DNA of 64,000 bases from Mobula hypostoma. Its lineage: Eukaryota. The stretch covers positions 127,040,001-127,104,000 of the forward strand of contig NC_086097.1 in assembly GCF_963921235.1 (NCBI RefSeq). The letters run 5' to 3'. Below are positions 3,409 through 53,683 of the stretch, piece by piece (position 1 is the stretch's first letter; each line of letters starts with the position of its first letter). Made by a program: the position numbers and the translations under genes. Below the pieces are notes generated by a model. That model was not told where the DNA came from, searched no databases, and saw nothing but the letters and a program-made list of their open reading frames with translations.

Positions 3409-6400
3409 ATATCACAAGATCACAAGACAAAGGAGCAGAAGTAGGCCATTCGGCCCATCGAGTTTGCTCTGCAGCTCGCCCATGAGCTAAAATATTCACC
3501 CATCTAGTTCCAATTTCTGGCTTTTTCCCCATATCTCTTGATATCCTGACTAATTAGATACCTGTCAATCTCCTCCTTAAACACCCTCATTGGTTGGGCC
3601 TCCACAGCTGCATGTGGCAACGAATTCCACAAATCCACGACCCTCTGGCTAAAAAAATTTCTCCTCATCTCTGTTTTAACTGGGTACCCTCTAATTCTAA
3701 GACTATGGCCTCTTGTACTGGACTCACCCACCAAGGGAAACAACCTTTCCACATCTACTCTGTACAACCCTTTCAACATTTGAAATGTTTCTATGAGATC
3801 CCCTCTCATTCTTCTATAATCTAATGAATACAGTCCAAGAGCCGACAAACACTCCTCATATATTAGCCCCTGCATTCCAGGAATCATCCTTGTAAATCTT
3901 CTCTGAACTCTCTCCAACATCAGTACATCCTTTCTAAGAAAGGGGGCCCAAAACTGCACACAGTATTCCAAATGAGGTCTCACTAATGCCCCATACAGCC
4001 TCATCAACACCTCCTTACTCTTATACACTATTCCTCTTGAAATGAATGCCAACATAGCATTCGCTTTCCTTACCGCCAATCCAACTTGGTGGTTAACCTT
4101 TAGGGTATCCTGCACGAGGACCCCCAAGTCCCTTTGCACTTCCGATTTTTGAATTTTCTCCCCATCTAAATAATAATCTGCCCCATTATTTCTTCTTCCG
4201 AAATGTACAACTGTACATTTGTGAACATTGTATCTCATCTGCCATTTCTTTGCCCACTCTCCTAAACTGACTAAGTCTCTCTGCAACCTTTTCGTTTCTT
4301 CAACATTTCCTGCTCCTCCACCTATCTTGGTGTCATCCGCAAACTTAGCCACAAAACCATATAATCCATAATCCAAATCATCGATATACATCGTAAAAAG
4401 AAGTGGCCCCAACCCCGACCCCTGCGGAACACCACAAGTAACCGGCAACCAATCAGAATAGGATCCCTTTATTCCCACCCTTTGCTTTCTGCCTATCAGC
4501 CAATGCTCCACCCATTCCAATATCTTTCCTGTAATTCCATGGGCTCTCATCTTAATAAGCAGCCTCATATGCGGCACCATATCGAAGGCCTTTTGAAAAT
4601 CCAAATACACAACATCCACAGCCTCTCCCTTGTCAATCTTATTCGAGATTACCTCAAAAAATTCCAATAGGTTGGTGAGGCAAGATCTTCCCTTCATGAA
4701 ACCATGCTGGCTTCGGCCTATCTTGTCATGCACCTCGAGGTATTTCATAACCTCGTCCTTGAGGATTGACTCCAATATCTTTCCAACCACCGATGTCAGA
4801 CTAATAGGTCTGTAATTTTCTTTTTCCGGCCTCCTTCCTTTCTTAAATAGCGGAACTATATTTGCGACCTTCCAGTCCTCCAGAACCATGCCAGAGTCTA
4901 TTGATTCCTGGAAGATCATTTCCAATGCTTCCACAATCTCCAAAGCCACCCCCTTAAGAGCACTTGGGTGCACCTCATCCGGACCGGGAGACTTATCTAT
5001 TCTTAGTCCACTTAGCTTCCCAAGCACTTTCTCTCTAGTAATCTTGACTGTACCTAATTCTATTCCCTGATACCTCTGGCTATCAGGTATATTGCTCATG
5101 TCTTCCACTGTGAAGACTGATGCAAAATACTCATTCAGTTCCTCCGCCATCTCTTTGTTATCCATTATAATTTCTCCAGCATCATTTTCAATCGGTCCCG
5201 TATCTACCCTTGTCACTCTTTTACTCTTCATATATTTAAAAAAAACTCTTAGTACCCTTCTTTATAGTAATCGCCAACTTCCTTTCATAATTCATCTTTT
5301 CTTTCGTAATGACTTTCTTAGTTTCCTTCTGTAAGTTTTTAAAAGTCTTCCAGTCCTCATTTTTCCCACTAATTTTTGCTTCCTTGTACGCTGTTTCTTT
5401 TGCTTTTATTTTTGCCTTAACCTCTCTCGTTAGCCACATTTGTGCCATTTTTCCATTCATGATTTTCTTTTTTCTTGGAATATTTTTCCTGCATGTTCCT
5501 TATTTCTTGTAGGAATTTCATTCCAATTCTGCTCTGCTGTCCCTTCATTTAGCTTACTTTTCCAATCGACTTGGGCCAGTTCCTCTCTCATACCACTGTA
5601 ATTTCCCCTGTTCCACTGAAATATTGATACACCTGATACCAGCTTCTCCTTTTCAAATTTGAAACTGAACTCAATCATATTATGATCACTACTTCCAAGG
5701 GATTCCTTTACCTCCAGCTCCCTAATTGCCTCAGGTTCGTTACACAGCACCCAATCCAAAACAGCTGGTCCCCTGGTGGGCTTCTGGACAAGCTGCTCCA
5801 AAAAGCCATCCTGTAGGCATTCTACAAACTCCCTCTCCTGAGATCCATTACCTTCCTGACTTTCCCAATCCACTTTCATATTAAAATTCCCCATAATTAT
5901 CTTGACATTTTCCTTCTGACACGCTTTTTCTATTTTCAGCTGCAACTTGTAGTCCACATCCCGGCTGCTGTTTGGAGGCCTGTATATAACTGCTATTAGT
6001 GTCTTTTTACCCTTGCCATTTCTTAATTCTACCCATAAGGATTCTACCTCTTCTGATGCTATGTCCCTTCTTTCTATTGATTTGATATTGTTACTTACCA
6101 TCAGGGCCACGCCACCCCCTTTACCTACCTTCCTATCTTTCCTATACACTGTGTATCCTTGGATATTCAGCTCCCAATCACATCCATCATTTAGCCATGG
6201 CTCGGTGATGGCCACAATGTCATATCTTTTAACCTGCAGCTGTGGAGCAAGGTCAACCACTTTATTTCTAATGCTGCATGCATTTAAGTACAGTACATTT
6301 AGATCAGTATCTGTTGCCAATTTTGCTATATTTCTATTTTGCAGCAAATTATCCTGTATATTCACCGGCCTGTCCTTCTTGCCACCTTTGCTGCACAGTA

Positions 6401-6530
6401 TTTTTGACTTATTTCTATTTTCCTCTTCCTCGACCCTAACACCTTGGTTTCCTTCCCCTTGCCAACTTAGTTTAAACCCTCCCTGACAGCTATATTAAAC
6501 AATCCCGCCAGGATATTAGTACCTTTTGAG
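3409..6530 (-). mobile_element. CR1 LINE, 5'-truncated: end of ORF1 plus near-complete ORF2 (APE endonuclease + RT)
   Basis: ORF 5457-6365 is the endonuclease (NACSIRNK, ITEPWL, SSDHNMI). ORF 5236-5460 is a linker. ORF 3504-5231 is the RT (YLDFQKAFD, GVPQGS, KFADDTK). ORF1 ends ...VREGLN* near 6468. An (ATCACAAG)n tail lies at about 3410. Confidence 0.97.
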
Positions 6531-21221: not shown

Positions 21222-21266
21222 GGCTTTCGAGGTCTTCCTGGGGCCCCAGGACCACAAGGACCTAAG
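21222..21266 (+). CDS. COL21A1: COL21A1-like FACIT collagen, exon (45 nt) GFRGLPGAPGPQGPK
   Basis: Polypyrimidine-CAG acceptor, GTAAAC donor, pure Gly-X-Y, phase 0. Confidence 0.9.
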
Positions 21267-22108
21267 GTAAACACAGATCCATGTTCAAGTTTGATTGTCC
21301 ATTTAACAGATGCGCACATTGGTGCCAAGACTGACACCCTCTGTTACATGAATCTGTAGTCCGATATACTGTCTGTTCCTCAGTGTGAGGTCAGTCATTC
21401 GTATGTTATTTTGGTACTTTTGGCACAGAACATTTCATAGAGTGGGCCAGTGGCTGAATAGGTTATTATAAGCCAACAACTCTTTAAACATTGCGGTCAG
21501 CCTCATTATAATTCTGCTTTCGAAAAAGGGAACAGCATTTGGAATGCAGATATCTAAGTGTGCAATGAAGCAGTTCATGAGGCCATAAAGACACCATTGA
21601 TCATTTAGAGATAAGAGATCATGGAATGATTAGAATATAGATGGAGAAAAACAAAAGCAAATTTTGCCTCAATTATAGACTTGAATGTAGGTACAGGTGA
21701 GGAAGAGATTTGTTTACATTTGGTTTAACTTTATCATAGAAGATATCTCAGCAACCCACATCATGGCCTCTGAGACGGGAATAAACTAGCAAATAATCAC
21801 ATTCCTTATGAATGTTCTGTGGCAGCTGTATATCCCTTGGCCTCTTCGAATTCCTGTTGATAAAAAAATTTGCTTCGTGAGATATCAAGTATGGCAAGTG
21901 AACAGGCATGGAAAAGAGGGATATAGACCACGTGCAAGCAGATGGGGATAGTTTAGATTGGCATCATGGTCAGTACAGACATCGTGGGTTGAATGGCCTC
22001 TTCCTGTGCTATATTGTTGAATGTTCTATTAATAATGTAATGGTACTGAAGACAATTGGATTTTAAAGTCTGGCAAGTTTCAATATGTAGGTTGTGTTAA
22101 GGTTGCAA

Positions 22109-22343
22109 TGTTATAAATCAACCTCCAGCACATTGGATGCATATGAAAAATAAATTATGTTCTGTTGTGAAGCACTCATGAAAGCAAAAGACCAGGTACC
22201 TTCAGCATGCTAGATTTATACTCCGTCATCAGCTGATGCAGTGCTACCAAATGGGCTGGAAAGCTCTTTAAATGGCCCAAACCCTAGCTGGCTTGGGGGA
22301 AGCAGCTTTCAATGATTTGGTAAATTTGACACTTAATGCAAAA
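22109..22343 (-). repeat. ERV 3' LTR
   Basis: Follows PPT-like AAGGGTGGTA (22344-22353, minus), contains GTATAAAT and ends TTATAACA. 22181-22343 aligns with 25030-25218. Confidence 0.75.
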
Positions 22344-22389
22344 TACCACCCTTGAAAGATACAACACCATGACACTTGGCCTGCAGGCT

Positions 22390-23490
22390 AGTATAACCCC
22401 CATGGACATCCCATTATACTACACACAAAACATAACACTCTGACACCAGAATTATCAGTCCACCAGTTGCTACTCACCAATCTTCCAACACCCCAGAATG
22501 CTTTCTCCTGGGGTGTAGTATCTATGGTGCTGGCCCCCTACATCCCTGATCTTATTTGCTGACCACTGGGTATGATCAGCCAGGTGAGTAATGTTCCCAG
22601 ACTCGTCGGGGATGTAGGTGCAGTGCTCTTGACCAATCGCAGCACAGATGCCACCTTTCTCTGCGCGCAGGTAGTCTAAGGTCTTCTGATTTTGTGAGGC
22701 CACCATCCATATAGGCATCATTCCAGCTGACACTCTGGTCAGTGCAGTCTCTGTATGTTTGAACACTGTGCCCGTCTTGTTGGCCAGTGCCTCCATCACA
22801 GAGGCCATGTGTATCATTTCTTAGGACAGTCTGGCCACACCATACAGGGGAAAGGCTATCATCCACAATCTTTCTGCCTCTGTAAAATGCCTCTTACTGC
22901 TTCAACGCTCATGGGTAGAGTGCTCATTCAGGCTATTCAGGTGATGTATGTATGGTACCATGTACCCTGGTTTGCAACAGCTGTAGCATCTGTCGGGAGC
23001 CCTGGGTAGGCCAGGGAGCCACTTAACATCCAGGGAATGCCAATCTTCACAGCTCTACTGACTGATTGGACCTGTGCTCGTCATATGGCCTGCATCAACA
23101 TCCCTTCCACTTCTCTGTTGACAGAGAGATTACTGTCAGAGTTGGGACCTTGGGATTGGACAGATCATAAATAGGGAGGTACCAGCCCTTCAAACACTTA
23201 CTCCACCAGTGTTTACCAAACCACAAGAATTTTTAAGGCCATTCCCCTACAATGGGGCAAAGTTGGCTGGAATGAACTATGTCCTCCAGGCTTTCTCCAA
23301 AACCAAATGTCAAAGCAGGAGAGCTGGACCAGTTCCTCCAACAGTCCTGTTCATTAAGGGGATTGGTATCAGTGGCATTCCCTCTGCAGTGTGGGTTGGC
23401 GCCCAGGATCTCTCACCAGCCTCCATCATTGCCACTCCCACCAGAATCCACCACTTTACTACTCTGTAGTGTAGGGAGACACACACACTC
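22390..23490 (-). pseudogene. env: Gamma-type retroviral env pseudogene (signal, SU remnant, TM with ISD)
   Basis: Signal-like WWILVGVAMMEA. SU motifs PTHTAEGMPLIPIPL and WMLSGSLAYPGLP...CCKPGYMVP. Cleavage and fusion region R*SSKR-HFTEAERLWMIAFPLYGVARL. ISD QNQKTLDYLRAEKGGIC-x6-HC at 22620-22694. Hydrophobic VATGGLIILVSELCFVC. Stops at about 22903 and 22822, plus frameshifts. Confidence 0.9.
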
Positions 23491-23499
23491 TGTCCCTCC

Positions 23500-23760
23500 T
23501 GGTGAGTGCCTGGGTATTTAGACAGACTATCCCCAGTTACTCTAGCAATGCTACCCGCCCCGCATTCCCGGGTCCACACTCCACAATCTTCCCCCTGCCC
23601 TGTGGGTGTTGCACCCAAACCTTCCCTAATTCCTCCTCCAACTCCACCTCTTCCACCTTTGGAGGATCTGATAGTGCCAAGTGCTGGGATAATGGGGACC
23701 TCCCCCAGGCCTGCTGGCTGTCCACTGCCTGCTGCAACACAATCAGCTGCCCCTGAAAGG
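23500..23760 (-). pseudogene. pol: Integrase C-terminal remnant, ERV-L-like
   Basis: ORF 23537-23740 reads LQQAV...GRSPL...LGKVWVQHPQGRGKIVECGPGNAGRV. This resembles the G-K-VWV..P.....G.G.T.WV C-terminal motif of class III integrases. Confidence 0.65.
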
Positions 23761-23783
23761 TGGGGGTGGGGGTGGGTCATCAT

Positions 23784-23965
23784 TGTTGTCATGTGGACAA
23801 AGTCACTGGAGAGAAGTACTGGTAAACATGAAGTAGTCTCTTTATTCGATAAAATGAGACACAGCAGACATCATATTGAGACCCCTTCTGGAGGAAGAGG
23901 CCTACTTGACCCACTAGTACATGAAATTTTATAGGTTAAAGATCTATATTTACAAGAATCTACAA
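23784..23965 (-). repeat. Unrelated LTR-like fragment (R/U5) inside the ERV
   Basis: On the minus strand: TATAAAA (23927-23933), AATAAA (23841-23846) and an end in ...CATGACAACA. Confidence 0.5.
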
Positions 23966-23974
23966 TACTTTTCC

Positions 23975-24373
23975 TTGAGGCTACTGGTTCAAGTCGCTAC
24001 CCTCGGAGGTGCCGATGGGTCCCAGTGCTCTCGGGGATGTTATCGAAATACTGAGATTTGTGGATTGGACTGTAGTTCATGTTGGCCTTTCAGTTCAATT
24101 TTTTTTTTGTTCCCATCCATTCCTTTCTTTTTGCCGATTGCCGGGCTGGGGATTGGGTGATCTGTTAGTTTTTGTGTGGGGGGGGGCATTGGGGATTGGA
24201 AGCTTTTGTTTCTTTTTCTTTTTCTACAGGGAGAATTACAACTAGTGGATGGGGGAGGGTTGACATCTTTCTTTCAACTACAGTGGTTTTCTGTATGTTA
24301 TGGCTATCTGGAGAAGACAAATCTCAGGGTTGTATTCTGCATGCATACTTTGGTAATAAAAAGAACCTTTGAA
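23975..24373 (+). mobile_element. SINE/LINE-tail insertion inside the ERV
   Basis: Ends ...CTCAGGGTTGTATTCTGCATGCATACTTTGGTAATAAAAAGAACCTTTGAAC, a tail type also seen reversed near 17050-17100. Confidence 0.55.
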
Positions 24374-24399
24374 CTGCCTTTAAGTCGGGAGCTGCTGCT

Positions 24400-25029
24400 T
24401 TAACTGGCCAAGGTTAATCTATGACCCTCCAGTGGATTGTTGCTTTTCTGATGGATCCCTGTGATCAGAGTCCACCAGTGAAGAGCTTTGGTCCCTTCCT
24501 CCTCTGTGTTCCACTCCTCCTGGGGCTTCAAATCCCACTCAGAGAGTGAGGGATACCTGACCTTCACTGCCACTATCACTCTGCCCCACAGCAATTCCTC
24601 TTCCCCCATGGGAAACAGATGGCATTCTCAGAGCATTGTTAATCATGTGGGGGGACAACAGCTCCCCTGTTAGATAAACTCACTCCAGCACACCCTCCAC
24701 GCAGGCAGAGTCTCCCCTGGCTTCTGCCTATACCTGTCTCCCAACACCACCAATTCCTTAATGGAGAATTCTCTGATGATAGTTATCTCAGTGAGACACA
24801 CTGTGTTATCCACCCCTGGTCCCTTGTCCTCATGCTATTCCTCTCCCCCGCCATGCTGCATTTACTCGCCCTGTTCCATGGAGGCTGGGGGGGGGGGTGG
24901 GGACAATGGGCTGGCAATCTCCTGCTGGACCTGGGGACTGCCGGGCCACTGGTCTGACTTTCCTCCCACTACAACAAACTTCCACAGTTCCTGCAGCACC
25001 TTTTGCAATCCAGATTGCCCAAAGCCCCC
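24400..25029 (-). pseudogene. gag: ERV-L-like (class III) gag remnant
   Basis: 24780 downward reads IIREFSIKELVVLGDRYRQKPGETLPAW. After frameshifts it continues LLWGRVIVAVKVRYPSLSEWDLKPQEEWNTEEEGTKALH (ORF 24400-24609). Both match recalled ERV-L capsid motifs (KEL...Y.QK.GE...W; AVK.RYP......W.T.EEGI..L). Confidence 0.72.
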
Positions 25030-25218
25030 AAAGCAAAAGACTGAGAGATTTCTGCCTGCTAGATTATATTCTGTCAGCACTGTGACATCATCAGCTGGGG
25101 CCGTGGTGTCAAATGGCAGCCAGTTGAAGGTCTGCAATGCTTCTTGAAAGAGCCAATCCCTAGCTGGCACTGGGGAGCAGCTTTTGAATGGCAGGTAAGA
25201 TTGACACTTACTACAACA
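25030..25218 (-). repeat. ERV 5' LTR (U3-R part; U5/PBS apparently deleted)
   Basis: TGTTGTAGTAAGTGTCAA...AAAGCTGCT...GCCAGCTAGGG...CAGCTGATGA...TATAATCTAGCA...GTCTTTTGCTTT is collinear with 22343-22181. Confidence 0.8.
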
Positions 25219-25444
25219 CCTGCTGGTAGGATCATCAGCATTTACTTCACACAAGAGTAGCCAGAGCATTAATAATGGATCAGGCATTGAGGGCACTTTC
25301 ATAATCCCAGCTATCTTGTGATAAGGTGACAGCTTCCTCACAAAAGCTACTTTAAGCCACCCTTGTTGATGTAGCCAATCAAACTACAAGCAGACACCTG
25401 GCCACACATCAATGGGAGGTCAAATCATAGAGTGGTGATCTGAA

Positions 25445-26176: not shown

Positions 26177-28200
26177 CATAGAACATAGAACATAGAATAG
26201 TACAGCACAGTACAGGCCCTTCGGCCCACAATGTTGTGTCAACCCTCAAACCCTGCCTCCCATATAAGCCCCCACCTTAAATTCACTAGTGTATCTGCCT
26301 CCACCACTGACTCAGGCAGTGCATTCCACGCACCAGCCACTCTCTGAGTAAAAAACCTTCCTCTAATATCCCCCTTGAACTTCCCACCCCTTACCTTAAA
26401 GCCATGTCCTCTTGTATTGAGCAGTAGTGCCCTGGGGAAGAGGCGCTGGCTATCTACTCTATCTATTCCTCTTATTATCTTGTACACCTCTATCATGTCT
26501 CCTCTCATCCTCCTTCTCTCCAAAGAGTAAAGCCCTAGCTCCCTTAATCTCTGATCATAATGCATACTTTCTAAACCAGGCAGCATCCTGGTAAATCTCC
26601 TCTGTACCCTTTCCAATGCTTCCACATCCTTCCTATAGTGAGGTGACCAGAACTGGACACAGTACTCCAAGTGTGGCCTAACCAGAGTTTTATAGAGCTG
26701 CATCATTACATCGCGACTCTTAAACTCTATCCCTCGACTTATGAAAGCTAACACCCCATAAGCTTTCTTAACTACCCTATCCACCTGTGAGGCAACTTTC
26801 AGGGATCTGTGGACATGTACCCCGAGATCTCTCTGCTCCTCCACACTACCAAGTATCCTACCATTTACTTTGTACTCTGCCTAGGAGTTTGTCCTTCCAA
26901 AGTGTACCACCTCACACTTCTCCGGGTTGAACTCCATCTGCCACTTCTCAGCCCACTCCTGCATCCTATCAATGTCTCTCTGCAATCTTTGACAATCCTC
27001 TACACTATCTACAACACCACCAACCTTTGTGTCGTCTGCAAACTTGCCAACCCACCCTTCTACCCCCACATCCAGGTCGTTAATAAAAATCACAAAAAGT
27101 AGAGGTCTCAGAACAGATCCTTTTGGGACACCACTAGTCACAATCCTCCAATCTGAATGTACTCCCTCCACCACCACCCTCTGCCTTCTGCAGGCAAGCC
27201 AATTCTGAATCCACCTGGCCAAACTTCCGTGGATCCCATGCCTTCTAACTTTCTGAATAAGCCTACCGTGTGGAACCTTGTCAAATGCCTTACTAAAATC
27301 CGTATAGATCACATCCACTGCACTACCCTCATCTATATGCCTGGTCACCTCCTCAAAGAACTCTATCAGGCTTGTTAGACACGATCTGCCCTTCACAATA
27401 CCATGCTGACTGTCCCTGATCAGACCATGATTCTCTACATGCCTATAGATCCTATCTCTAAGAATCTTTTCCAACAGCTTTTCCACCACAGACGTAAGGC
27501 TCACTGGTCTATAATTACCTGGACTATCCCTACTACCTTTTTTGAACAAGGGAACAACATTCGCCTCCCTCCAATCCTCCGGTACCATTCCCGTGGACAA
27601 CCAGGACATAAAGATCCTGGCCAGAGGCTCAGCAATCTCTTCCCTCGCCTCATGGAGCAGCCTGGGGAATATTCCGTCAGGCCCTGGGGACTTATCCGTC
27701 CTACTGTATTTTAACAACTCCAACACCTCCTCTTCCTTAATATCAACATGCTCCAGAACATCAAACTCACTCATATTGTCCTCACCATCATCAAGTTCCC
27801 TCTCATTGGTGAATACCGAAGAGAAGTATTCATTGAGGACCTCGCTCACTTCCATAGCCTCCAGGCACATCTTCCTACCTTTATCTCTAATCGGTCCTAC
27901 CTTCACTCCTGTCATCCTTTTTTCTTCACATAATTGAAGAATTCCTTGGGGTTTTCCTTTACCCTACTCGCCAAGGCTTTCTCATGCCCCCTTCTTGCTC
28001 TTCTCAGCCCCTTCTTAAGCTCCTTTCTTGCTTCCCTATATTCCTCAATGGGCCCATCTGATCCTTGCTTCCTAAACCTCATGTATGCTGCCTTCTTCCA
28101 CCTGACTAGATCTTCCATCTCACTTGTCACCCATGGTTCCTTCACCCTACCATTCTTTATCTTCCTCACTGGGACAAATTTATCTCTAACATTCCACAAG
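26177..28200 (-). mobile_element. CR1 LINE, 5'-truncated (RT plus C-terminal domain)
   Basis: ORFs 27912-28274, 26881-27915 (YTDFSKAFD, KFADDTK) and 26239-26844 (VRPHLEYC), with a (CATAGAA)n tail. Confidence 0.96.
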
Positions 28201-28660: not shown

Positions 28661-28714
28661 GGACAGAAAGGTCTGATTGGCCAAAAGGGAGCTGAAGGGC
28701 ATCCCGGGATACCG
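28661..28714 (+). CDS. COL21A1: COL21A1-like exon (54 nt) GQKGLIGQKGAEGHPGIP
   Basis: TTTCTAG acceptor, GTGAGT donor, Gly-X-Y. Confidence 0.93.
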
Positions 28715-33471: not shown

Positions 33472-34325
33472 CCATAAGACCATAAGGCTATAAGACCATA
33501 AGACAAAGGAGCAGAAGTCGGCCATTCGGCCCATCGAGTCTGCTCTGCCATTTTATCATGAGCTGATCAATTTTATCCTATTTAGTCCCACTGCCCCGCC
33601 TTCTCACCATAACCTTTGATGCCCTGGCTACTCAGATACTTATCAATCTCTGCCTTAAAGACACCCAATGACTTGGCCTCCACTGCTGCCCGTGGCAACG
33701 AATTCCATAGATTCACCACCCTCTGACTAAAAAAATTTTTTCGCATTTCTGTTCTGAAAGGGCGCCCTTCAATCCTTAAGTCATGCCCTCTCGTACTAGA
33801 CTCCCCCACCATGGGAAACAACTTTGCCACATCCACTCTGTCCATGCCTTTTAACATTCGAAATGTTTCTATGAGGTCTCCCCTCATTCTTCTAAACTCC
33901 AAGGAATACAGTCCAAGAGCGGACAAATGTTCCTCATATGTTAATCCTCTCATTCCCAGAATCATTCTAGTGAATCTTCTCTGTACCCTCTCCAACGTCA
34001 GCACATCCTTTCTTAAATAAGGAGACCAAAACTGCCCACAGTACTCCAAGTGAGGTCTCACCAGTGCCTTATAGAGCCTCAACATCACATCCCTGCTCCT
34101 ATACTCTATTCCTCTAGAAATGAATGCCAACATTGCATTCGCCTTCTTCACTACTGACTCAACCTGGAGGTTAACTTTAAGGGAATCCTGTACGAGGACT
34201 CCCAAGTTCTGTTGCATCTCAGAACTTTGAATTCTTTCCCCATTTAAATAATAGTCTGCCCATTTATTTTTTCTGCCAAAGTGCATAACCATACACTTTC
34301 CAATATTGTACTTCATTTGCCACCT
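33472..34325 (-). mobile_element. CR1 LINE 3' fragment
   Basis: ORF 33582-34316 (VRPHLEYC, RMRGDLIE) with a (CATAAGAC)n tail. Confidence 0.95.
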
Positions 34326-34895
34326 CTTTCCTGCCCATCCCCAACCCTTTTCAGCTCTAAATTAACAGTTAACCACCTTTTACATTGTGTTTGGAGAATT
34401 CAGAACTCATATTATCTTAAAAGATCTTAAAGGGAGGAGTAGCTTAGGGATGGGGTGATAGAAATGGCCAAGAAGTCCATTTGTGTTTTCATTGGCACTG
34501 GGTTTAGACTGTGTTTTCAGTGCGTTATTGGGTATAAATCGATTTTCTTCCAGGTAGATGTGGATTGATTTTTCGATGGATCAGCAATGAGAAAGGCATT
34601 GAGGCTCCCTGCTCCAGATCTGTGTAGGCCTTCATCTCTTGCTCCCCTGCATCCACAACTGTCCCAAGTAGGCAGTACAGCAATATTTTGCTTCCTACCT
34701 TTGGAGTTAATTTTGTTATTGGGAAATATGGGCCAGAGAGAGACAGAAGTGTTATCTCCATGAAGATCCATCCAGTGTCAGGATGAGGGGATAGGAAATC
34801 TGAGGGGATGAGGAGGTCAAACTGTTGAAACGGGCCCGGTTGCACCAAAAAAAAAACACAACTTGGGGCTATTGATGATCTGTCTTTGTTTTTAG

Positions 34896-51724: not shown

Positions 51725-52287
51725 TTACCTGGTAACGTTTGCAAACACCACTCACCCAGTCCTGTTACACATACCCTCTCGTCCAGTCACCTGATCATGT
51801 TTACCATCACCACTCTCTGAGCCCTGTTACACACATTCTTGTCCACTCACCAGGTAACGTTTGCAAACACCACTCACCCAGTCCTGTTACACATACCCTC
51901 TCGTCCAGTCACCTGATCATGTTTACTATCACCACTCTCTGAGCCCTGTTACACACATTCTTGTCCACTCACCTGGTAACCTTTACAAACACCACTCACC
52001 GAGCCCTGTTACTCACACCCTCTCGTCCAGTCACCCGATCATGTTTACCATCACCACTCTCTGAGCTCTGTTACACACACTCTTGTCCACTCACCTGGTA
52101 ACGTTTACAATCACCACTCACCCAGCCCTGTTACACACACACTCGTCCACTCACCAGGTAACGTTTGCAATCACCTGTCTGTCTGTATCTTGTTTTATGG
52201 CGGTTGGCATCCAGCTTAATGGTGCATTACCGCCACCCTCTGCTCCAGAATGTGCACTAGACATACATTCTAAATCCCTTCACCCAA

Positions 52288-52328
<41 letters not shown>

Positions 52329-53683
52329 AACAAACCTACACTTCACCCTCCCATCTTTGACCATCCTAGTATCCTATTCCTGTTTATTCGTCATATTCTA
52401 TAAAAAACCCCTGTACCCCTTAAAAACGCTAAAAATACCCGGACTTGTGCTCTCTCACCCATGCCCAGCAACCCTTTTAATGTGAATTCCTGCATCTCCA
52501 ACTCCCTTAATTTATTTCTCATCATCTCTCTCTGTATCCCATACTTCCTGCAACACAAAACTACATGTTCTACTGATTCCTCTTCCTGACATTCCTCACA
52601 CAATCCTGTCTGGTGTTTCTTTATCATTTTCAATGTTTTGTTTAATGCACAATGCCCCAGCCTTAACCTAGTCCACACAATTTCCTTTCTTCTGTTTCCA
52701 TTACCTACCCTAGTAACTGCAATACTCTTTTGTATTTGATATAAATGCCTCCCTTTCCCCTCCCTGTCCCATCTTTCTTGCCACATTCGGTTGACTTTTT
52801 CCCAGATTACACACTTAACCTCTGCTTTACTGATACTAATGTGCATTTCCACATTTTCTTTCTTTAACGCCCTCTTTGCCAACTCATCCACCCCCTCATT
52901 CCCCTTCACCCCTACTTGTGCTGGAACCCATAGAAATTTTACCTGACCTCCCTGATTTGCAATTCTTGTAACTAACTGAAGGACTTCATAAAGTACATCT
53001 TGCCGACTGTTTGTGTGAAAAGACCTTAAACTTGCTAGAACTGAGGATGAATCTGAACATATCAATGCTTTGGCTTGTCTGGCTTTCTGCACCCATTGTA
53101 ACGCAACCAACACTGCCAGCATCTCCACTGTAAACACCCCTAACGTTTGCAATCACCGCTCACCGAGCCCTGTTACACACACTCTTGTCCACTCACCTGA
53201 TAATGTTTGCAATCACTCACTCACCCAGCCCTGTTACACACACACTTGTCCACTCACCAGGTAACGTTTGCAATCACCGCTCACTCAGCCCTGTTACACA
53301 CACTCTTGTCCACTAAGCAGGTAACGTTTGCAATCACCACTCACCCAGCCCTATTACACACATTTGTATCCACTCACCTGATAATGTTTACAATCACTCA
53401 CTCACCGAGCCCTGTTACACACATTCGTGTCCACTCACCTGATAATGCTTGCAATCACTCACTCACCGAGCCCTGTTACACACACACTTGTCCACTCACC
53501 AGGTAATGTTTGCAATCACTGCTGACCCAGCCCTGTTACACACATTCGTATCCACTCACCTGATAATGTTTACAATCACTCACTCACCCAGCCCTGTTAC
53601 ACACACACTCGTCCACTCACCAGGTAACGTTTGCAATCACCACTCACCGAGCCCTGTTACACACACTCTTGTCCACTAACCAG
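51725..53683. repeat. Tandem satellite array, about 61-bp monomer, split by a LINE insertion
   Basis: Unit CTCACC(C/G)AGCCCTGTTACACACACTCTTGTCCACTCACC(A/T)GGTAACGTTTGCAATCACCA on both sides of 52176-53140. Confidence 0.92.
52176..53140 (-). mobile_element. Nimb/I-group LINE 3' fragment (RNase H plus CCHC finger)
   Basis: ORF 52391-53152 reads ICSDSSS...WVPAQVGVKGNEGVDELAK...RLRLGH...CEEC..EESVEHVVLCC. 3' UTR GGCGGTAATGCACC...CAACCGCC and an (ACAG)n tail. Flanked by TAACGTTTGCAATCACC. Confidence 0.9.

Follow-up and report, generated by a model that had tools for sequence, protein, structure and literature searches.

Class III endogenous retroviruses (ERVs) that carry an envelope gene (env) of class I or gamma type have been described in several vertebrates. 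HERV-S, HERVL32 and HERVL66 are described as class III elements with a class I env and without a dUTPase (PMC4724089), and XtERV-S of Xenopus joins a class III gag-pol to a class I env and uses a serine primer-binding site (PBS) (PMC8278194). ERVs whose env is gamma-type are known from six cartilaginous fishes, one element having a class III pol together with an env of class I (10.1101/2021.11.23.469661), and most chondrichthyan ERV reverse transcriptases (RTs) belong to clade III (PMC11089739). HERVS/L-like elements have been reported for tetrapods, and elements like snakehead retrovirus (SnRV) and epsilon-like elements for the elephant shark (PMC4977317); SnRV itself carries one CCHC knuckle (PMC1224870). 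Further related sources are PMC6001957 and PMC10699275. A sequence-only reading of the window, that is, the whole 64,000-nucleotide stretch of Mobula hypostoma contig NC_086097.1 from 127,040,001 to 127,104,000, had placed an ERV with class III gag and integrase (IN) and a gamma-type env at 22109..25218 and had implied that this pairing is a surprise. The same pairing is already published for HERV-S, XtERV-S, ERV-S.1-Dbi and an anamniote ERV. The architecture is known, and what this family adds is a likely ray host, an age and a likely pol-less form with gag and env. The earlier idea of an undescribed family is not contradicted by a literature search, which found no paper on the family but left subscription journals, the bioRxiv supplements of Chen et al. 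(which may list it) and Dfam/Repbase outside its range. RTs related to that of the family have already been annotated publicly in a stingray, a bichir and a toadfish.

The element is very probably a degraded copy, with internal deletions, of an ERV family that is present many times in the genome and combines a gag-pol of class III (ERV-S/ERV-L-like) with a PBS for tRNA-Ser(CGA) and a gamma-type env. The family likely reached the germ line of an ancestral ray in a single ancient burst and is likely inert now. Element coordinates are positions within the 64-kb window, and the provirus is read on the minus strand. The gag, IN and env peptides quoted in the sequence-only reading, and the proviral order on the minus strand, were all recovered at 22100-25300. 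Two direct-repeat segments lying 2.85-2.88 kb apart are remnants of the long terminal repeats (LTRs); their alignment scores 115, whereas 300 shuffles reach at most 35 and other tiles of the window at most 43. The 5' LTR (24950..25218) starts with TGTTGT at exactly 25218, as had been proposed, but it is truncated to the first ~270 nt of a family LTR that is longer (~400-440 nt) than had been thought, and its 3' end, the PBS and the leader are deleted. It is followed by a frameshifted gag remnant from the middle to 3' part of the gene (24360..24950), pieces of which match gag regions of class III-type proteins, and by insertions of non-retroviral high-copy repeats (23775..24375, no strand assigned) at the site where the pro-RT-RNaseH-IN core is missing. 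The C-terminal tail of IN (23490..23773), which is continuous with the IN core in paralogs, precedes a remnant of the env signal region and surface subunit (SU) at 22899..23500 and one of the transmembrane subunit (TM) at 22400..22898. The TM remnant contains an SKR cleavage-like site, a fusion-peptide-like stretch, a sequon, the immunosuppressive domain (ISD) and a mutated CX6CC motif. The polypurine tract lies at about 22344..22354 and also stands next to the 3' LTRs of paralogs, which bears out the earlier suggestion of such a tract. The 3' LTR is reduced to its first ~170 nt (22175..22343), as delimited by LTR alignments. Its end had been placed at 22109, but the segment 22185-22000 aligns above shuffles with none of eight natural LTRs, and so 22109 is not an LTR end.

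The losses of the window copy become clear when it is compared with full-length paralogs. About 800 nt, comprising the LTR's 3' end, the PBS, the leader and the 5' part of gag, are gone at about 24950. The gag gene is kept to about 24360, where ~600 nt of foreign repeats replace the region from pro to the IN core, and the sequence resumes in the IN tail at 23773 and continues through env and the polypurine tract into the 3' LTR, which runs from 22343 to about 22175. Both LTRs are truncated and lack the polyadenylation half. The env remnant has lost the SU stretch with the CWxC motif and contains stop codons, frameshifts and lost cysteine motifs.

When the 3.48-Gb genome was searched with the element, 40 candidates were scored and gave 82 matches, most of them with 63-83% identity. 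The comparison drew on 10-kb loci anchored on env, on gag or on RT, 20 of each kind, and on L093, and the natural copy L104 served as the reference for gene content. The gag gene is present in 9 of the 20 env-anchored loci, env is present in 13 of the 20 RT-anchored loci, and gag, RT and env are collinear in 6 of the latter, L104 itself being counted. The sequence-only reading had named an env never linked to gag in other copies as grounds for its rejection, and env was found in 12 of the 20 gag-anchored loci. Pol-containing copies, whose recovery had also been proposed, were obtained as collinear gag-pro-RT-RNaseH-IN-env paralogs. Their gene order is LTR, PBS, leader, gag, pro, RT, RNase H, IN, env, polypurine tract and LTR, and the IN core, the IN tail and the start of env are continuous. 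Since gag, RT and env recur in collinear order at dispersed loci, env is native to the family. The LTRs of the paralogs are ~400-440 nt long, start with TGT and end with ACA, the window copy keeping only the 5' TGT. As separate observations, one paralog has within its gag a tandem array of ~2.6 kb that grew from a 36-bp unit (L047:6400-9040), and at another locus (L049:1364-6500) two pieces of the family's env lie ~3.5 kb apart and are oppositely oriented.

The gag and IN peptides of the window have no relevant Pfam match, a homolog search with the IN piece of L037 gave no match, and the direct peptide match between the window IN tail and the tail of P0016 is not above shuffles. Single-frame pieces of the paralogs match the Pfam families RVP, RVT_1 and rve weakly, and none of these matches reaches its curated cut-off. 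A first RT search returned 11 matches, of which the 10 named ones are avian proteins from a more distant class III clade. A profile built from 11 natural RT pieces reached closer relatives; its best match among 1.84 billion representatives is XP_072911374 of the red stingray Hemitrygon akajei (5.8e-55), followed by proteins of a crane, a bichir, a caecilian (XP_033785733) and a toadfish. The profile gave 150 hits, of which 30 were identified by name. Proteins from this set are also matched, in their gag regions, by the gag pieces of the window (best 3.8e-6). The RT references for ERV-S.1-Dbi, whose closest homologues are described as muERV-L-related, include XP_033785733 (10.1101/2024.03.17.585361). 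The RT tree, built by a quick method with Shimodaira–Hasegawa-like approximate likelihood ratio (SH-aLRT) support only, has 138 rows and 163 columns; proteins covering <125 RT residues, the cluster members P0163-P0173 and family pieces beyond six single-frame ones stand outside it. These six pieces form a 9-row clade with the stingray protein, L098 and P0088 (SH-aLRT 96). This clade nests in a group (support 90) that includes proteins of a caecilian, a toadfish, a bichir, a turtle and a bat, and it is separate from the one in which the MLV-like P0152 falls.

The sequence that follows the 5' LTR of the paralogs, deleted in the window, is complementary to the tRNA-Ser(CGA) of the genome. Among the genomic tRNA candidates, nine pattern hits were obtained and six were scanned, giving five Ser(CGA) and one Ser(TGA). 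The PBS of L114 matches genomic tRNA-Ser(CGA) plus CCA at 18 of 18 positions, and a PBS with at most 4 mismatches is present in 18 of 59 LTR-end matches. A caecilian dUTPase query found no dUTPase in any of 81 sequences (the window and 80 loci), and the IN core of the same protein matched 40 loci. No CCHC knuckle was found in the gag-homologous stretch, and the CCHC pattern occurs in 4 of 61 loci, decayed copies limiting the sensitivity of this search. Because a serine PBS and an env are present and no dUTPase was found, these traits point to an ERV-S-like family, not ERV-L proper. The family shows every ERV-S trait tested, and the choice between ERV-S and ERV-L rests on these traits and not on the tree, because named references, ERV-S among them, are absent from the RT tree. 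The earlier class III assignment of gag and IN is upheld by the RT grouping, the anchors of which are indirect (XP_033785733 and avian and turtle proteins), whereas its ERV-L label does not apply in the strict sense. A second class III family (L083-L092 and L100) is better preserved and lies near the window family in the RT tree; L087 and L088 of this group carry a related TM, and no Ser-PBS match was found within the stretches covered.

The env remnant is of gamma type, as the sequence-only reading had stated. A 116-aa frame at 22473-22820 matches Pfam TLV_coat (PF00429, 1.1e-6), and the window TM matches syncytin-1 (6.5e-6), syncytin-2 and MLV TM chains as well as TLV_coat clusters in the Atlas. 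The ISD (~22647-22697) is kept, as claimed, but the CX6CC motif claimed with it reads C-x6-H-C in the window (22620-22646) and is intact only in paralogs. By strict patterns, CX6CC is intact in 6 of 61 loci and the SU CWxC motif in 9 of 61. An N-x-T sequon is present in four of nine aligned copies, the window reading NKT within the first heptad (22773-22781). Among 150 scored TM matches (1602 candidates), no env frame exceeds 376 aa. A TM profile returned one protein among 8000 candidates scored, P0012 of Scyliorhinus torazame (46% identical to the window TM); it is an intact 518-aa env frame annotated as syncytin-2-like and is related to the family in SU too. This env could belong to a young provirus or be a co-opted gene. 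Together with the best RT match, that of Hemitrygon akajei, this sole env match gives indirect support to the cartilaginous-fish host proposed earlier, the host clade being read from best hits. Related TMs stand behind class III RT in L088 and L144, and a related gamma-type TM lies downstream of a class I-type RT in L137, L139 and, less surely, L132; TMs of a related kind are thus seen on both class I and class III backbones within one genome. In an unrooted TM tree of 31 rows, the class I-linked TMs are split from the side of the family at 100/98. Because related TMs sit behind both class I-type and class III RT, env has likely been exchanged between the classes in this lineage, the unrooted tree giving no direction.

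Eight of eight aligned copies, on eight contigs, share one deletion junction, at which the start of pro is joined to mid-IN core. The deletion removes ~2.7 kb. Splicing was rejected as its source, because the breakpoint coincides with a short microhomology and not with GT/AG. Since the ~2.7-kb deletion is common to dispersed copies, the deleted genome itself would have been copied, and the shared deletion likely marks a non-autonomous gag+env form that was most likely copied in trans. The window copy is not assignable to the short or the long form, because both flanks of the junction are lost and the columns that distinguish the forms are not diagnostic.

The LTR pairs of 12 paralogs differ by Kimura two-parameter (K2P) distances of 0.22-0.36, some alignments being partial, and the window pair differs by 0.28 over 187 sites. 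Copy-to-copy identity is 69-76%, and TM mismatch is equal across codon positions (0.243/0.230/0.240). These values suggest a burst from near-identical templates followed by neutral decay. LTR divergence of 0.024-0.033 is given for elephant-shark ERVs in PMC4422223, and the two rates in that report convert K=0.276 to ~63 My (2.2e-9) or ~630 My (2.2e-10), the latter being impossible; no usable better rate for elasmobranchs emerged from a literature search. An age of >~60 My, and likely of much more, is all that can safely be given. The insertion was also sought in 4 of 24 listed sequencing runs, which are labelled as other organisms. The list named no RNA run, which carries no information on expression. 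Contigs from all four span the junction of the 5' LTR and host DNA with about 2.7-6.8% differences, and the 3' junction is spanned in two of them, suggesting that the insertion predates the species splits, about fourfold by simple ratio. It is a tentative possibility that an ERV-S/L-like virus with env colonised the batoid germ line well over 100 My ago and spawned a pol-less gag+env satellite. If this is true, the batoid case would rank with the oldest class III proviruses with env that can be dated, and it would suggest that a class III core with a gamma-type env was already circulating in cartilaginous fishes at a time far earlier than the loss of env from mammalian ERV-L.

Some points weigh against the reading of the element as a copy of an ERV-S-like family with a short form. 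The RT tree rests on 163 columns and holds no named HERV-S, MuERV-L, XtERV-S, SnRV or foamy virus. The RT profile ranks foamy RT (5e-23) over MLV (3e-12) in the PDB, and the longer stingray relative P0013 prefers MLV-type chains (1e-42 vs 1e-35); since the two rank foamy and MLV oppositely, the PDB ranking is no decisive criterion by itself. A 5-bp target-site duplication with agreement at 4-5 of 5 letters is seen in only 3 of 12 copies. The eight copies of the short form are a selection out of 14 candidates in the 40 env- and gag-anchored loci, and 4 columns distinguish short from long forms against a permutation mean of 1.6 and maximum of 7, the two forms not being separated. That the family is instead SnRV-related, belonging to the class III group reported with env in the elephant shark and other anamniotes, would agree with PMC4422223 (Han 2015) and 10.1101/2021.11.23.469661 (Chen 2021), where only SnRV-related class III ERVs have env in the fish screened, and the RT tree held no named SnRV. 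This is improbable, because the family has a serine PBS, because its nearest named RTs are those of the stingray, the caecilian (muERV-L-related), the bichir, the turtle and the bat, and because no CCHC knuckle was found inside the element, whereas SnRV has one (PMC1224870).

The missing pol between the window gag and env, with foreign repeats in its place, and the related TMs beside class I-type RT elsewhere in the genome (L137, L139 and, less surely, L132) would suit a chance mosaic in which the env of a class I provirus was inserted or recombined beside a class III gag at one locus. It is the least credible of the explanations considered, being largely refuted by the collinear full-length paralogs: gag, IN tail, env and LTR follow one another in the same way at many dispersed loci, of which several also have RT, the IN core, IN tail and env start form one continuous stretch there, and the family TM lies across the 100/98 split from the class I-linked TMs. 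Co-option, as an env-derived gene or as an LTR-derived regulatory element in the collagen gene that surrounds the element, would fit the retention of the insertion at an identical position in four further species-labelled runs, and the catshark env relative is an intact 518-aa frame annotated as syncytin-2-like. However, it is very unlikely in view of the stops, frameshifts and lost cysteine motifs of the window env, the flat mismatch across codon positions, the absence of the polyadenylation half from both LTRs and the antisense intronic orientation, which is usual for tolerated neutral ERV copies. The window copy is without sign of function. On the preferred reading, that of a decayed ERV-S-like copy, retroviral biology predicts an ancestor that was primed by tRNA-Ser, integrated with a target duplication of ~5 bp and entered cells via an SU-TM envelope joined through CWxC and CX6CC. 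RT and integrase of the short gag+env form would likely have been supplied in trans by full-length copies. The window copy would have landed antisense in the collagen intron and lost its PBS, pol and LTR ends, and afterwards it would have taken up repeats and drifted neutrally.

The location in a collagen intron proposed by the sequence-only reading is confirmed: a Gly-X-Y exon at 21222..21266 on the 5' side and the next detected one at 28661..28714 on the 3' side, both on the plus strand, flank the minus-strand provirus, and so the element is antisense in the intron. The collagen gene extends over 21222-61145 (plus strand) with short Gly-X-Y exons starting at 21222, 28661, 34896, 38398, 40635, 44531, ~49195, ~51449 and ~60954 and with a cysteine-bearing tail at its end. 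Its last exon matches a collagen in the Atlas with low recognition, which does not fix the collagen type; we take the gene to be FACIT-like (fibril-associated collagen with interrupted triple helices). Long minus-strand frames at 3507-6494, 26884-27963, 33585-34361 and 52394-53152 are presumably non-LTR retrotransposon open reading frames (CR1-like, the last one RNase H-like). Tandem arrays of 60-61-bp units lie near a collagen exon at 51727-52175 and 53141-53683.

Among described elements, HERV-S/ERV-S (HERV18, LTR18), HERVL32 and HERVL66 share with the window family a class III pol and a class I-type env (PMC4724089), and they are likewise described with no dUTPase after IN, no gag zinc finger and high LTR divergence. 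HERV-S differs in its mammalian hosts and in an env that groups with PRIMA41/PABL, and the likeness is one of described traits. XtERV-S resembles the family in its serine PBS, TGT...ACA LTR ends, ERV-L-like gag and pol, CWxC motif near the SU start, ISD with CX6CC and internally deleted relatives, and its stutter sequon is like the first-heptad N-x-T of the family (PMC8278194). It differs in being intact and young, in its Ser(AGA/TGA) PBS and in a dUTPase after IN, where none was found in the window family; its deleted copies keep mainly the 5' ends of gag, whereas those of the window family keep gag and env. ERV-S.1-Dbi of the black rhinoceros has a tRNA-Ser(CGA) PBS, muERV-L-related gag and pol, a gamma-type env and a 5-nt direct repeat, and its tree reference XP_033785733 is a close RT neighbour of the window family, but it is a recent and intact element of a mammal, its LTR measures 792 bp and its SU has captured a SIRP-like domain (10.1101/2024.03.17.585361). 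The window family, by comparison, is dead and has an LTR of ~400-440 nt. MuERV-L and HERV-L have the same type of gag and pol as the window family, and ERV-L uses a leucine PBS. ERV-L differs further in that env is absent and a dUTPase is present (PMC4724089, PMC8278194). ERV-SA.a-Ppe and CmiERV lineage I are, like the window family, anamniote ERVs with a gamma-type env (10.1101/2021.11.23.469661, PMC4422223), but the class III pol is called SnRV-related there, and the CmiERV LTR divergence of 0.024-0.033 is about a tenth of that of the window family (PMC4422223). The present family would carry the ERV-S-type architecture over to cartilaginous fishes, for which the prior reports cited name only SnRV-like and epsilon-like lineages with env. 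It provides orthologous insertions that can set a minimum age, and it bears on the question raised by XtERV-S of whether a gamma-type env was carried early by class III viruses or was acquired repeatedly.

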